Shown piece after piece: positions 16,955 to 19,846 of a DNA stretch of 64,000 bases (positions within the stretch are counted from its first letter, which is position 1; every line of letters starts with the position of its first letter). A model generated the notes under the pieces. That model had not been told where the DNA came from. It ran no database searches and was given only the letters and a program-made list of their open reading frames with translations. The position numbers and the translations under genes are program-made. Where the stretch lies: assembly GCF_030013205.1 (NCBI RefSeq), contig NZ_CP122648.1; one strand, 5' to 3'. The DNA is from Escherichia coli. GTDB taxonomy: Bacteria; Pseudomonadota; Gammaproteobacteria; Enterobacterales; Enterobacteriaceae.

Positions 16955-18637
16955 ATGAAGTCTGCATTAAAGAAAAGTGTCGTAAGTACCTCGATATCTT
17001 TGATACTGGCATCTGGTATGGCTGCATTTGCTGCTCATGCGGCAGATGATGTAAAGCTGAAAGCAACCAAAACAAACGTCGCTTTCTCAGACTTTACGCC
17101 GACTGAATACAGTACCAAAGGAAAGCCAAATATTATCGTACTGACTATGGATGATCTTGGTTATGGACAACTTCCTTTTGATAAGGGATCTTTTGACCCA
17201 AAAACAATGGAAAATCGTGAAGTTGTCGATACCTACAAAATAGGGATAGATAAAGCCATTGAAGCTGCACAAAAATCAACGCCGACGCTCCTTTCATTAA
17301 TGGATGAAGGCGTACGTTTTACTAACGGCTATGTGGCGCACGGTGTTTCCGGCCCCTCCCGCGCCGCAATAATGACCGGTCGAGCGCCCGCCCGCTTTGG
17401 TGTCTATTCCAATACCGATGCTCAGGATGGTATTCCGCTAACAGAAACTTTCTTGCCTGAATTATTCCAGAATCATGGTTATTACACTGCAGCAGTAGGT
17501 AAATGGCACTTGTCAAAAATCAGTAATGTGCCAGTACCGGAAGATAAACAAACGCGTGACTATCATGACAACTTCACCACATTTTCTGCGGAAGAATGGC
17601 AACCTCAAAACCGTGGCTTTGATTACTTTATGGGATTCCACGCTGCAGGAACGGCATATTACAACTCCCCTTCACTGTTCAAAAACCGTGAACGCGTCCC
17701 CGCAAAAGGTTATATCAGCGATCAGTTAACCGATGAGGCAATTGGCGTTGTTGATCGTGCCAAAACACTTGACCAGCCTTTTATGCTTTACCTGGCTTAT
17801 AATGCTCCGCACCTGCCAAATGATAATCCTGCACCGGAGCAATATCAGAAGCAATTTAATACTGGTAGTCAAACAGCAGATAACTACTACGCTTCCGTTT
17901 ATTCTGTTGATCAGGGTGTAAAACGCATTCTCGAACAACTGAAGAAAAACGGACAGTATGACAATACTATTATTCTCTTTACCTCCGATAATGGTGCGGT
18001 TATCGATGGTCCTCTGCCGCTGAACGGGGCGCAAAAAGGCTATAAGAGTCAGACTTATCCTGGCGGTACTCACACCCCAATGTTTATGTGGTGGAAAGGA
18101 AAACTTCAACCCGGTAATTATGACAAGCTGATTTCCGCAATGGATTTCTACCCGACAGCTCTTGATGCAGCCGATATCAGCATTCCAAAAGACCTTAAGC
18201 TGGATGGCGTTTCCTTGCTGCCCTGGTTGCAAGATAAGAAACAAGGCGAGCCACATAAAAATCTGACCTGGATAACCTCTTATTCTCACTGGTTTGATGA
18301 GGAAAATATTCCATTCTGGGATAATTACCACAAATTTGTCCGTCATCAGTCAGACGATTACCCGCATAACCCCAACACCGAGGACTTAAGCCAATTCTCT
18401 TATACGGTGAGAAATAACGATTATTCGCTAGTCTATACAGTAGAAAACAATCAGTTAGGTCTATACAAACTGACGGATCTACAGCAAAAAGATAACCTTG
18501 CCGCCGCCAATCCGCAGGTCGTTAAAGAGATGCAAGGCGTGGTAAGAGAGTTTATCGACAGCAGCCAACCACCGCTTAGCGAGGTAAATCAGGAGAAGTT
18601 TAACAATATCAAGAAAGCACTAAGCGAAGCGAAATAA
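16955..18637 (+). CDS. ydeN: Putative periplasmic sulfatase YdeN (560 aa)
   Basis: Signal peptide; sulfatase region (HGVSGPSRAAIMTGR) with Ser in the FGly position; length matches YdeN from the internal Met. Confidence 0.85.
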   Translation: MKSALKKSVVSTSISLILASGMAAFAAHAADDVKLKATKTNVAFSDFTPTEYSTKGKPNIIVLTMDDLGYGQLPFDKGSFDPKTMENREVVDTYKIGIDKAIEAAQKSTPTLLSLMDEGVRFTNGYVAHGVSGPSRAAIMTGRAPARFGVYSNTDAQDGIPLTETFLPELFQNHGYYTAAVGKWHLSKISNVPVPEDKQTRDYHDNFTTFSAEEWQPQNRGFDYFMGFHAAGTAYYNSPSLFKNRERVPAKGYISDQLTDEAIGVVDRAKTLDQPFMLYLAYNAPHLPNDNPAPEQYQKQFNTGSQTADNYYASVYSVDQGVKRILEQLKKNGQYDNTIILFTSDNGAVIDGPLPLNGAQKGYKSQTYPGGTHTPMFMWWKGKLQPGNYDKLISAMDFYPTALDAADISIPKDLKLDGVSLLPWLQDKKQGEPHKNLTWITSYSHWFDEENIPFWDNYHKFVRHQSDDYPHNPNTEDLSQFSYTVRNNDYSLVYTVENNQLGLYKLTDLQQKDNLAAANPQVVKEMQGVVREFIDSSQPPLSEVNQEKFNNIKKALSEAK

Positions 18638-18688
18638 CTAAACCTTCATGCGGCGGATTTTTCCGCCGCCTTATTGAGCGAGATAGCG

Positions 18689-19846
18689 ATGCACGTTACA
18701 GCCAAGCCCTCCAGTTTTCAATGTAATCTCAAATGTGATTACTGTTTTTACCTTGAAAAAGAGTCGCAGTTTACTCATGAAAAATGGATGGATGACAGCA
18801 CTCTGAAAGAGTTCATCAAACAATATATCGCAGCGTCTGGCAATCAGGTCTATTTTACCTGGCAAGGCGGTGAACCCACTCTGGCTGGCCTGGATTTTTT
18901 CCGTAAAGTTATTCACTATCAACAACGCTATGCAGGCCAAAAACGTATTTTTAATGCATTACAAACGAATGGCATTTTATTGAATAATGAATGGTGTGCC
19001 TTTCTCAAAGAACATGAGTTTCTGGTTGGTATTTCGATCGATGGCCCCCAAGAACTACATGACCGTTACAGACGCAGTAATTCAGGTAACGGTACTTTTG
19101 TAAAAGTGATAGCAGCCATCGAGCGTCTGAAATCTTATCAAGTAGAGTTTAATACGTTAACCGTCATTAATAACGTTAATGTCCATTACCCTCTTGAGGT
19201 TTATCATTTTTTAAAATCTATCGGCAGTAAACATATGCAATTTATCGAATTGCTCGAAACCGGGACGCCGAATATTGATTTCAGTGGTCATAGTGAGAAC
19301 ACATTCCGTATCATTGATTTTTCTGTGCCTCCTACGGCTTATGGCAAGTTTATGTCGACCATTTTTATGCAATGGGTTAAAAACGATGTGGGTGAAATTT
19401 TCATCCGTCAGTTTGAAAGCTTTGTCAGCCGTTTTTTGGGGAATGGGCATACCAGTTGTATTTTCCAGGAGTCCTGCAAGGATAATCTGGTTGTTGAAAG
19501 TAATGGAGACATTTACGAATGCGACCATTTTGTCTATCCACAGTACAAAATTGGAAACATTAATAAATCTGAACTCAAAACGATGAACAGTGTTCAACTG
19601 ACAGCGCAAAAAAAACGGATTTCAGCGAAATGTCAGCAATGTGCATATAAACCTATCTGCAATGGCGGTTGTCCTAAGCATCGTATTACTAAAGTAAACA
19701 ATGAGACTGTTTCCTATTTTTGTGAAGGTTATAAAATCCTTTTTTCAACCATGGTACCTTATATGAACGCCATGGTGGAGTTAGCTAAGAACAGAGTACC
19801 GCTTTACCACATCATGGATGTTGCAAGACAAATGGAGAATAATTAA
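18689..19846 (+). CDS. ydeM: Radical-SAM anaerobic sulfatase-maturating enzyme homolog YdeM (385 aa)
   Basis: CxxxCxxC motif (CNLKCDYC) near the N-terminus and C-terminal Cys clusters; 385 aa from the internal Met. Confidence 0.85.

Follow-up and report, generated by a model that had tools for sequence, protein, structure and literature searches.

The archetypal operon of a Ser-type sulfatase and an anaerobic sulfatase-maturating enzyme (anSME) is AtsA/AtsB of Klebsiella pneumoniae. AtsA is a Sec-exported periplasmic arylsulfatase that serves sulfur scavenging, its maturase is encoded downstream on the same strand, and maturation is expected to take place in the cytoplasm before export. The anSMEs are promiscuous enzymes; the natural substrate of the solved anSMEcpe from Clostridium perfringens (PDB 4K36-4K39) is a Cys-type sulfatase. 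A sulfatase of experimentally defined specificity, PB_3285 (P0407) from Photobacterium sp. QA16, is a chondroitin-sulfate GalNAc-6-O-exosulfatase (PMC8819143).

The Escherichia coli ydeN-ydeM pair has long been annotated and belongs to textbook knowledge; publications on it go back to 1998, so it is not novel. It is intact in the window (the whole 64 kb stretch of DNA that was analysed). ydeN (16955..18637, + strand, 560 aa) is predicted to encode an S1 (formylglycine-dependent) sulfatase precursor. ydeM (18689..19846, + strand, 385 aa), which starts 51 bp 3' of ydeN, would encode an anSME of the radical SAM/SPASM type. The pair runs exactly from the ydeN ATG at 16955 to the final base of the ydeM stop codon at 19846. 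There is good reason to regard it as a two-gene operon in which a Ser-type periplasmic sulfatase that depends on formylglycine is paired with an activating enzyme dedicated to it; the basis for co-transcription and regulation of the pair is found in the literature (PMC10878103, PMC10746267, PMC3738151, PMC4918353, PMC3105977).

The sulfatase and its predicted activating enzyme

YdeN scores 238.6 bits against PF00884 (Sulfatase; gathering cutoff 25), residues 58-408 covering the entire profile. The protein has a single [CS]xPxR match, the sulfatase signature S132-G-P-S-R136 (17348..17362, + strand; context VAHGVSGPSRAAIMTGR), in which Ser132 is the predicted formylglycine precursor. In phmmer alignments this SGPSR pairs with CGPSR in the S1_19 sulfatase 9hh3, the wild-type enzyme, and with SGPSR in 9hh2, where that Cys is mutated to Ser. 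Ser132 is kept in 16/16 YdeN orthologues from about ten genera, and YdeN contains no cysteine at all; the equivalent position is Cys in 12/12 proteins of the PB_3285 clade and also in most other relatives. The first-pass annotation, which had placed a Ser at the formylglycine position and named loss of the catalytic motif on alignment as a possible refutation, is thus borne out on the serine, and the motif is present. YdeN also carries D66, D67, K183, H185, H286, D345, N346 and K364, all invariant in the 16 orthologues, while D66, D67, R136, H185, H286, D345 and K364 show no substitution in 41 distant relatives, down to ~30% identity. By alignment, the predicted S1 sulfatase catalytic set is complete.

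A putative Sec-type signal peptide (residues 1-29, MKSALKK...AFAAHA followed by ADD; 16955..17041, + strand) was read by inspection: a basic n-region, a hydrophobic core and A-H-A ahead of the predicted cut, without a twin arginine. AlphaFold confidence is low at residues 1-46, which fits a cleaved or flexible N-terminus, and YdeN is listed as periplasmic (PMC10746267). The AlphaFold model, built on a 41-sequence alignment, has a pLDDT of 91.2; an earlier run on 16 close orthologues gave 47.6 and was set aside. Foldseek matched the model to S1 sulfatases at probability 1.00, the best being S1_19 enzymes with TM 0.80-0.83. YdeN is therefore modelled as a two-domain alkaline-phosphatase-like sulfatase fold.

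YdeM scores 503.5 bits against TIGR03942 'anaerobic sulfatase maturase' (cutoff 349.45) and is 35.5% identical to anSMEcpe 4K36 (E = 1e-62), in agreement with the earlier reading of an anSME-like radical-SAM enzyme directly 3' of ydeN. It passes the anSME model only; peptide maturases such as DynA are sub-threshold (217 bits vs 450). The radical SAM cluster motif C12-x3-C16-x2-C19 (18722..18745, + strand) aligns to C15, C19 and C22 of anSMEcpe and is invariant in 8 orthologues. In the SPASM region (19457..19723, + strand), C257, C263, C278, C315, C318, C324, C328, C345 and D279 correspond one-to-one with anSMEcpe C255, C261, C276, C317, C320, C326, C330, C348 and D277, and all nine are likewise invariant in the 8 orthologues. 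We take the auxiliary clusters of anSMEcpe to be held by C255, C261, C276 and C330, and by C317, C320, C326 and C348, an assignment reportedly made by Goldman et al. in 2013; the matching YdeM sets would presumably be C257, C263, C278 and C328, and C315, C318, C324 and C345. On this alignment YdeM retains 11/11 of the cysteines that ligate Fe-S clusters in anSMEcpe, together with its catalytic Asp, and the three [4Fe-4S] ligand sets are common to both. YdeM differs from anSMEcpe in having one additional conserved cysteine, C103.

From their homology with AtsA/AtsB and anSMEcpe, all the biochemical steps of YdeM and YdeN may be proposed as follows. YdeM would hold three [4Fe-4S] clusters, a radical-SAM cluster and two auxiliary ones, and, in the anoxic cytoplasm, would bind the unfolded YdeN precursor near S132-G-P-S-R136. 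It would cleave SAM, take the C-beta hydrogen of Ser132 and, with D279 as the base, oxidise this residue to C-alpha-formylglycine. The modified precursor would then be exported by Sec. In the periplasm, the hydrated formylglycine would lie beside a Ca2+ bound by D66, D67, D345 and N346 and would attack a sulfate ester placed by R136, K183, H185, H286 and K364.

Conservation, mobility and the intergenic stem-loop

The complete 2892 bp is present in 5373/5426 complete E. coli genomes (99%), where it is annotated as ydeN and ydeM; the pattern is thus not due to chance. YdeN is 99.8% identical to K-12 b1498 and YdeM 99.2% identical to b1497. The codon differences from K-12 are 18 synonymous and 1 non-synonymous in ydeN, and 14 synonymous and 3 non-synonymous in ydeM. 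Both genes are under strong purifying selection.

The two genes move as a self-contained cassette among Gammaproteobacteria, one betaproteobacterium and plasmids. A radical SAM gene lies directly 3' of the sulfatase gene in 7/8 orthologous loci (Yersinia, Aeromonas, Iodobacter, an Anaerobiospirillum-like metagenome contig, an Enterobacterales element, Salmonella and Leminorella), and the flanking genes all differ. On an E. coli plasmid of the IncFIB type, ydeN-ydeM and nothing else lies between insertion sequences. A plasmid-borne YdeN paralogue has no adjacent maturase, and tblastn of the region 3' of it found no decayed one; maturation in trans is therefore tolerated. A porin was considered as a conserved third gene and rejected, as the porins 5' of the Aeromonas sulfatase and of the plasmid paralogue share just 32% identity.

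Translation signals and RNA structure differ between the two genes. A GAGGA Shine-Dalgarno sequence precedes the ydeN ATG and the ribosome-binding region of ydeM is weak. Between the genes lies a stem-loop (18650..18669, + strand; GCGGCGGA UUUU UCCGCCGC, then a weak U-tract) of -18.7 kcal/mol (z = -3.1) that is identical in K-12. Stable hairpins (z <= -3) occur in 7/8 sulfatase-maturase spacers from eight genera, with unrelated hairpin sequences. A terminator scan found no site that meets the U-tract rule between ydeN and ydeM or 3' of ydeM, and for this reason the stem-loop is not classed as a terminator; an Rfam search gave just two sub-threshold chance matches. The stem-loop probably lowers maturase output relative to the sulfatase.

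The weak ribosome-binding region with a stem-loop ahead of it would also suit a cryptic pair, transcribed and conserved in E. coli but with no present function, in which YdeN is never activated and YdeM is inactive, scarce or oxygen-killed. Heterologous Ser-type sulfatases are not known to be matured in E. coli unless a maturase is supplied with them, which for Klebsiella AtsA is AtsB; this could mean that YdeM has little activity or is expressed poorly in laboratory conditions. No sulfatase activity or phenotype tied to ydeN was found in the literature, and azo-dye reduction, the only phenotype assayed in a delta-ydeN strain, was unchanged (PMC10653809). A cryptic state is nevertheless improbable given the selection on both genes, their near-universal presence in the species, the invariance of all catalytic and cluster residues across distant genera, and the repeated horizontal transfer by which the pair has spread intact, plasmids included. 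Furthermore, expression is regulated, and protein was detected in anaerobic rumen-fluid cultures (PMC3936929).

Regulation and the acid-response neighbourhood

Two CRP-like sites lie in the 401-bp ydeO-ydeN spacer: site 1 (AGTGACATTCATCACA; 16660..16675, + strand) 295 bp, and site 2 (TGTGACTAACTTCACT; 16874..16889, + strand) 81 bp, 5' of the ydeN ATG. They are the only matches to TGTGA-N6-TCACA with <=1 mismatch in the whole window, a total not above chance in which only the clustering is notable, and their half-sites are kept in K-12. A consensus scan gave a candidate ydeN promoter-like site (CTTACA, 18 nt spacer, TAAAAT, 9/12 matches; 16888..16917, + strand), in a region where the number of such matches is not above shuffle expectation. 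The centre of site 2 would be ~42 bp 5' of the implied start, a class II CRP spacing. Genomic SELEX identified ydeN as a target of CRP (PMC3105977), and its expression is probably CRP-dependent. Upstream of orthologues in other genera, a CRP-like site was found in Leminorella alone; CRP control is thus not a family trait.

AraC with arabinose shuts down ydeN (PMC3738151; PMC10878103). A scan for AraC half-sites (TAGC-N7-TCCATA, <=2 mismatches) was uninformative, with 44 matches where 49.5 were expected and no match within the ydeO-ydeN spacer, so the link between AraC and ydeN comes from the literature. ydeN is also repressed by GadX (PMC4918353) and falls ~40-fold (log2 -5.3) at pH 4.4 (PMC10746267).

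The pair had been placed inside the EvgA/YdeO acid-response neighbourhood. As a matter of position this holds: ydeP, safA and ydeO lie 5' of the pair and gadBC ~8 kb 3' in the window annotation, although evgA is absent from the stretch examined. The regulatory link does not hold. The window has two EvgA-box-like sites, 5' of ydeP (12733-12750) and safA (15391-15408), and none was matched in the ydeO-ydeN spacer. The YdeO ChIP-chip regulon consists of seven operons, ydeN and ydeM being absent from that ChIP-chip/transcriptome paper (PMC4222967), and GadX and acid repress ydeN. The acid-response link of ydeN-ydeM is one of adjacency; the pair does not belong to that regulon.

Regulation also bears on whether YdeN is a sulfur-scavenging arylsulfatase like AtsA, freeing inorganic sulfate from esters, aromatic or otherwise, when sulfate or cysteine is scarce and having no part in carbohydrate catabolism. 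In its favour are the arrangement shared with AtsA/AtsB, in which the maturase gene follows that of a periplasmic Ser-type sulfatase, a 2.5-fold rise of the orthologue along with cysteine-regulon genes in a Yersinia pseudotuberculosis iscR mutant (PMC4055776), the induction of ydeN and no other gene by FD&C Red 40, a sulfonated dye (PMC10653809), and a plasmid on which the cassette adjoins the thiosulfate reductase genes phsABC. However, E. coli ydeN goes down with malE, lamB, xylF, treC and glpFK (literature gene sets, including PMC10746267), and the literature found ties it to CRP, AraC and GadX and to no sulfur regulator. YdeN also falls far short of the NCBIfam arylsulfatase equivalog (123.8 vs a cutoff of 481), and its nearest characterised relative, PB_3285, is a carbohydrate sulfatase. 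Sulfur scavenging is thus about as improbable as a cryptic pair.

Substrate lead and comparison with known sulfatases

By sequence, PB_3285 is the closest characterised relative of YdeN: the two are 40% identical and collinear over 504 residues with 4 gaps (392 bits), compared with 181 bits for the best solved structure. Its clade (Plesiomonas, Salmonella, Vibrio, Providencia and Pasteurellaceae; at least 60% identical internally) is marginally closer to YdeN (mean identity 38.7%, which is not orthologue-level) than are other uncharacterised relatives (34%). YdeN shares certain features with this clade: i) an insert of ~26 residues after DDLGxxQ and a C-terminal domain, found in PB_3285 itself; ii) R201-D-Y-x-D205, N451, F454 and W455, which are rare among other relatives; and iii) a signal peptide and an adjoining anSME, the latter always present in the PB_3285 type. 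The PB_3285 clade is Cys-type and YdeN Ser-type, the gene order is anSME then sulfatase, the reverse of ydeN-ydeM, and 36 positions are fixed differently in the two clades. PB_3285-type loci are devoted to chondroitin-sulfate/GalNAc utilisation (lyases, GH88, 4-O-sulfatase, KdgM porin, aga/PTS), whereas YdeN-YdeM stands alone, none of these partners being found in the 8 YdeN-type loci. Given the Cys-type residue, the reversed order and the missing locus partners, the specificity of YdeN may differ from that of PB_3285, which offers a testable substrate lead rather than a demonstration.

The closest solved matches in sequence and fold are SulfAtlas S1_19 carrageenan sulfatases (9HH2/3, 6B0J, 6PSM), iota/kappa-carrageenan enzymes that align at E ~1e-50 and share the xGPSR form with YdeN. 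That YdeN is itself a galactose-4-O-sulfate (carrageenan-type, S1_19) sulfatase is still less probable than the alternatives above. The S1_19 structures have 13-18 residues between DDLGYG and TP, against 39 in YdeN and PB_3285, and hence are without the insert of YdeN and its true relatives. They are Cys-type, ~100 residues shorter and from marine polysaccharide loci, and their whole-length identity to YdeN is just 26-28%, PB_3285 matching twice as well. In addition, the S1_19 enzyme of Akkermansia, a gut bacterium, was inactive on every substrate tried (bioRxiv 10.1101/2025.09.11.675649). An S1_19 assignment from the PDB matches alone was rejected on the insert and PB_3285 comparisons.

That YdeM is not, or not solely, the maturase of YdeN, and may serve AslA or modify a peptide while AslB matures YdeN, is highly improbable: E. 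coli does have AslA and AslB, anSMEs are promiscuous, peptide maturases give sub-threshold matches and a plasmid paralogue lacks a neighbouring maturase, but sulfatase-maturase adjacency is strict in 7/8 loci with unrelated flanks, the anSME model is the only one passed, and no small peptide gene is conserved next to the pair.

For a periplasmic Ser-type sulfatase activated by YdeM, small saccharides of sulfated amino sugars or galactose would be the likeliest substrates. Examples would be the reducing-end GalNAc-6-sulfate of chondroitin-sulfate fragments and mucin-derived sugars freed by other gut bacteria. A specific action on 6-O-sulfated hexosamine or galactose is suggested by sequence only tentatively. 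It is conceivable, at a similarly tentative level, that YdeN-YdeM is a Ser-type offshoot of the chondro-6-sulfatase family, self-sufficient and horizontally mobile: a two-gene kit that strips 6-O-sulfate in the periplasm and in which a conserved stem-loop sets the ratio of enzyme to maturase. If so, its users would be enterobacteria and other facultative anaerobes that have no machinery of their own for degrading glycans. GalNAc, Gal or GlcNAc saccharides from Bacteroides or host turnover would be desulfated and enter the aga/nag pathways. E. coli would then have in YdeN its first functional sulfatase, one that acts as a determinant of cross-feeding in the anoxic gut.

In the gut, host glycans that carry sulfate are a major nutrient, and E. 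coli has two Ser-type sulfatase/maturase pairs. A defined YdeN substrate would fill an old annotation gap and could explain the rise of ydeMN in mouse-gut-adapted araC mutants (PMC10878103). As a finding the pair is not new; what is gained is a concrete set of candidate substrates and a correction on the acid-response regulon.

The second pair in the same genome, AslA/AslB, is likewise a Ser-type periplasmic sulfatase (motif S-S-P-T-R, with a signal peptide) and an anSME. AslB is 41% identical to YdeM and AslA just 27% to YdeN, and the aslA/aslB genes are convergent whereas ydeN/ydeM are in tandem. A genetic study on aslB and ydeM mutants is said to have been published by Benjdia et al. in 2007 (FEBS Lett 581:1009). 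In gene order, export and predicted maturation before export, YdeN/YdeM resembles Klebsiella AtsA/AtsB; AtsA serves sulfur scavenging, whereas YdeN is regulated like a carbon-catabolic gene.

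Sulfatase YdeN and maturase YdeM

The ydeN gene runs on the + strand from an ATG at 16955, preceded by GAGGA, to 18637 (560 aa), and ydeM follows on the same strand from an ATG at 18689 to 19846 (385 aa). The ATG and stop positions in the ORF list agree exactly with the 16955-19846 of the first-pass annotation, which had paired a serine-type sulfatase with an anaerobic sulfatase-maturating enzyme (anSME)-like partner in the EvgA/YdeO acid-response neighbourhood. The analysis confirms the pair and supports its interpretation, but the link to the acid response is one of position only. 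Of 5426 complete E. coli genomes, 5373 contain the segment (megablast), with the genes annotated there as sulfatase-like hydrolase/transferase (ydeN) and anaerobic sulfatase maturase (ydeM). Compared with K-12 MG1655, YdeN differs from b1498 at 1 of 560 residues and YdeM from b1497 at 3 of 385; synonymous to non-synonymous codon differences are 18:1 for ydeN and 14:3 for ydeM. This near-identity, with mostly synonymous differences, indicates that both genes are intact and under purifying selection.

YdeN matches the Pfam Sulfatase family (PF00884, 238.6 bits) and has one copy of the (C/S)xPxR motif, S132-G-P-S-R136, in the segment YVAHGVSGPSRAAIMTGR; the whole protein is devoid of cysteine. 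In a solved-structure alignment the motif falls on the CGPSR of wild-type 9hh3, an S1_19 sulfatase, placing Ser132 at the formylglycine position, as first read. The other S1 catalytic residues are all found (D66, D67, K183, H185, H286, D345, N346 and K364) and, with Ser132, are invariant in 16 orthologues; the core set is unchanged across 41 relatives with identity down to ~30%. Absence of the motif on alignment had been named as one of two findings that would count against the assignment; both the motif and the full catalytic set are there. By inspection, the N-terminus looks like a Sec-type signal peptide: MKSALKK, a hydrophobic core and AHA|ADD. A model built from the 41-sequence alignment has a pLDDT of 91.2 and superimposes on S1 sulfatase structures with TM scores of 0.80-0.83; a first model, built from close orthologues, was poor and was discarded.

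YdeM scores 503.5 bits against the NCBIfam anaerobic sulfatase maturase equivalog (cutoff 349.45) and is 35.5% identical to the solved Clostridium perfringens enzyme anSMEcpe, bearing out the anSME-like description. Alignment to anSMEcpe identifies the radical-SAM cluster cysteines C12, C16 and C19, matches the eight auxiliary-cluster ligands one-to-one (C257, C263, C278, C315, C318, C324, C328 and C345) and equates its catalytic Asp with D279; eight orthologues share every one of these residues. Goldman et al. 2013 reportedly assigned the anSMEcpe residues to their clusters.

A two-gene cassette

Eight loci with YdeN relatives at 70-84% identity were compared. In seven (Yersinia pestis, Aeromonas veronii, Iodobacter, an Anaerobiospirillum-like metagenome contig, an Enterobacterales integrative element, Salmonella and Leminorella), the next gene in the same orientation, 42-222 bp beyond the sulfatase, encodes a radical SAM protein of 386-392 aa, and the flanking genes are all different. 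Because the pair is kept together while all flanks differ, what is conserved and moves is the two-gene cassette, and the comparison gives good support for functional coupling of ydeN and ydeM. Integrases or insertion sequences are often nearby, and an E. coli IncFIB plasmid carries only ydeN-ydeM, between IS26/ISVsa5 and replication genes. On the swine E. coli IncFIB plasmid NZ_CP046008.1 (locus L018, 1-9980), a ydeN-ydeM-yneP block in this position adjoins the thiosulfate reductase operon phsABC, so that two sulfur-related modules lie side by side. In the window, the corresponding 40-aa ORF (19812-19934, minus strand) is antisense to the 3' end of ydeM, which it overlaps; RefSeq genomes carry it as a hypothetical protein and K-12 as yneP (b4747), and it accompanies the cassette on plasmid p1919D62-2.

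The eighth locus is the exception: a plasmid-borne YdeN paralogue (565 aa, 77% identical) with a porin gene upstream, and no maturase gene or remnant was found downstream of it. This protein would have to be matured in trans. The paralogue occurs in some E. coli as a second YdeN, is Ser-type and is represented by about 300 sequences on IncF-type plasmids; in the retrieved loci (L007, 3847-5544; L008; L019, 6001-7698) the porin gene lies directly before it, and a hairpin and insertion sequences lie 3'.

The 51-bp ydeN-ydeM spacer contains a stem-loop (18650-18669; -18.7 kcal/mol, z = -3.1) that is identical in K-12. Stable hairpins with z of -3 or lower occur in seven of eight sulfatase-maturase spacers from eight genera; their sequences are unrelated, and the U-tract that follows is good in some loci and not in others. 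The E. coli stem-loop fails a terminator scan. Since ydeM is reported to be co-transcribed with ydeN (PMC10878103), we infer that its likeliest role is partial termination or transcript stabilisation, yielding more sulfatase than maturase.

Downstream of ydeM, the ABC-transporter gene yddA is interrupted by a 768-bp IS1 (21261-22028; insA/insB on the minus strand), which cuts it into frames of 381 aa and 129 aa. The IS1 flanks are 100% identical to the intact yddA of strain W13-16, and the junction shows an 8-bp duplication.

Regulation and the acid-response neighbourhood

In location, the acid-response placement stands: ydeP, safA and ydeO lie upstream of ydeN and gadBC downstream. In function, it finds no support. 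The only two EvgA-box-like sequences in the window (TTCYTACA-N2-TGTARGAA, 1-2 mismatches) are upstream of ydeP (12733-12750) and safA (15391-15408), matching known EvgA targets; the window scan found none upstream of ydeN. In a ChIP-chip and transcriptome study of YdeO, seven operons are listed and neither ydeN nor ydeM is mentioned (PMC4222967). GadX binding lowers ydeN transcription (PMC4918353), and ydeN belongs to the genes with the strongest repression at pH 4.4 (log2 -5.3; PMC10746267).

Instead, AraC binds upstream of ydeN when arabinose is present (PMC3738151), deletion of araC raises ydeMN (PMC10878103), genomic SELEX lists ydeN as a CRP target (PMC3105977), and ydeN shares down-regulated gene lists with malE, lamB, xylF, treC and glpFK (PMC10746267 and a further paper). 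Across the 64-kb window, the only near-perfect CRP half-site pairs are two sites in the 401-bp ydeO-ydeN spacer (16660-16675 and 16874-16889), each conserved in K-12; one is centred ~42 bp upstream of the start implied by a candidate promoter-like sequence. The total of CRP-like sites is not above chance, and only their clustering in this spacer is striking.

Just after ydeO, a strong GC-rich hairpin with T-runs on both strands (16601-16623) looks like a bidirectional terminator separating ydeO from the ydeN promoter region. Upstream of yddA, the inverted repeat AAAATGAAATAT / ATATTTCATATT (20028-20057) includes TGAAAT...ATTTCA, the hexamer reported for the YdeO-box inverted repeat; yddA is absent from the reported YdeO targets (PMC4222967), and the match may be due to chance, the spacer being AT-rich.

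Substrate lead and known systems

Among solved structures, YdeN best matches the S1_19 carrageenan (galactose-4-sulfate) sulfatases. A ~26-residue insert after the DDLGYG metal-binding motif, absent from the S1_19 structures, is common to YdeN and its non-orthologous relatives, most of which are Cys-type. In a search of 1.8 billion representative proteins, orthologues have at least 70% identity and >900 bits and the next relative 43% and 449 bits, a gap that leaves the YdeN group isolated. This nearest relative is a Plesiomonas sulfatase, whose locus encodes a near-identical match to the solved chondroitin/dermatan-sulfate 4-O-endosulfatase 6J66, a KdgM porin, an anSME, a mannose-family PTS, a relative of glucuronate dehydratases from family PF10022, KbaZ, AgaS, tagatose-bisphosphate aldolase, and a kinase that resembles 2-dehydro-3-deoxygluconokinase (KdgK) but scores below the NCBIfam cutoff. 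The same sulfatase clade occurs in equivalent loci of Salmonella, with GH88, and Photobacterium damselae, with PL8 and chondroitinase-ABC-like lyases.

The clade includes PB_3285 of Photobacterium sp. QA16 (P0407): the published primers agree with P0407 in length, signal peptide, the sequences of both termini and the Cys109 motif. PB_3285 experimentally removes the 6-O-sulfate from the reducing-end GalNAc of chondroitin-sulfate oligosaccharides (PMC8819143). It is 40% identical to YdeN over 504 residues with four gaps, and its score (392 bits) is twice that of any solved structure. With PB_3285 the closest characterised relative, a 6-O-sulfated hexosamine or galactose saccharide is our best guess, on sequence grounds, for the YdeN substrate. 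The guess is weak because identity to YdeN is only a little higher in the PB_3285 clade (38.7%) than in other, uncharacterised relatives (34%), the two clades have different fixed residues at 36 positions, gene order is reversed relative to ydeN-ydeM, and YdeN loci are without glycan-degrading partners. A literature search found no paper connecting ydeN with chondroitin.

The PF10022 (BcGHD) protein of ~500 aa (retrieved loci L014, 10716-12248; L016, 11815-13296; L017, 11823-13361) always follows a PB_3285-type sulfatase in the chondroitin-sulfate loci of Plesiomonas, Salmonella and Photobacterium. Its sole solved relatives (E ~1e-15) are the glucuronate dehydratases 9o4u and 9nwf, both recent deposits, and the beta-galactosidase 8oi4; it may be an uncharacterised step in chondroitin disaccharide breakdown.

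The ydeN-ydeM pair is already known, since Schirmer and Kolter 1998 reportedly paired E. coli sulfatase genes with atsB-like ones, and the aslB and ydeM deletions are said to have been studied by Benjdia et al. 2007. Cassette mobility, the conserved stem-loop, the clustering of CRP-like sites and the lead from PB_3285 are modest additions. In E. coli, the pair corresponds to AtsA/AtsB of Klebsiella and has a sibling in AslA/AslB: AslA, too, carries a signal peptide and a signature Ser, and AslB shares 41% identity with YdeM. Among the three K-12 sulfatases (loci L012 and L013), AslA (S-S-P-T-R, with signal peptide) and Ser-type YdeN each lie beside a full-length anSME, whereas YidJ is cytoplasmic and Cys-type (C-T-P-A-R), is without a signal peptide, and the YidF encoded nearby has only 165 aa.
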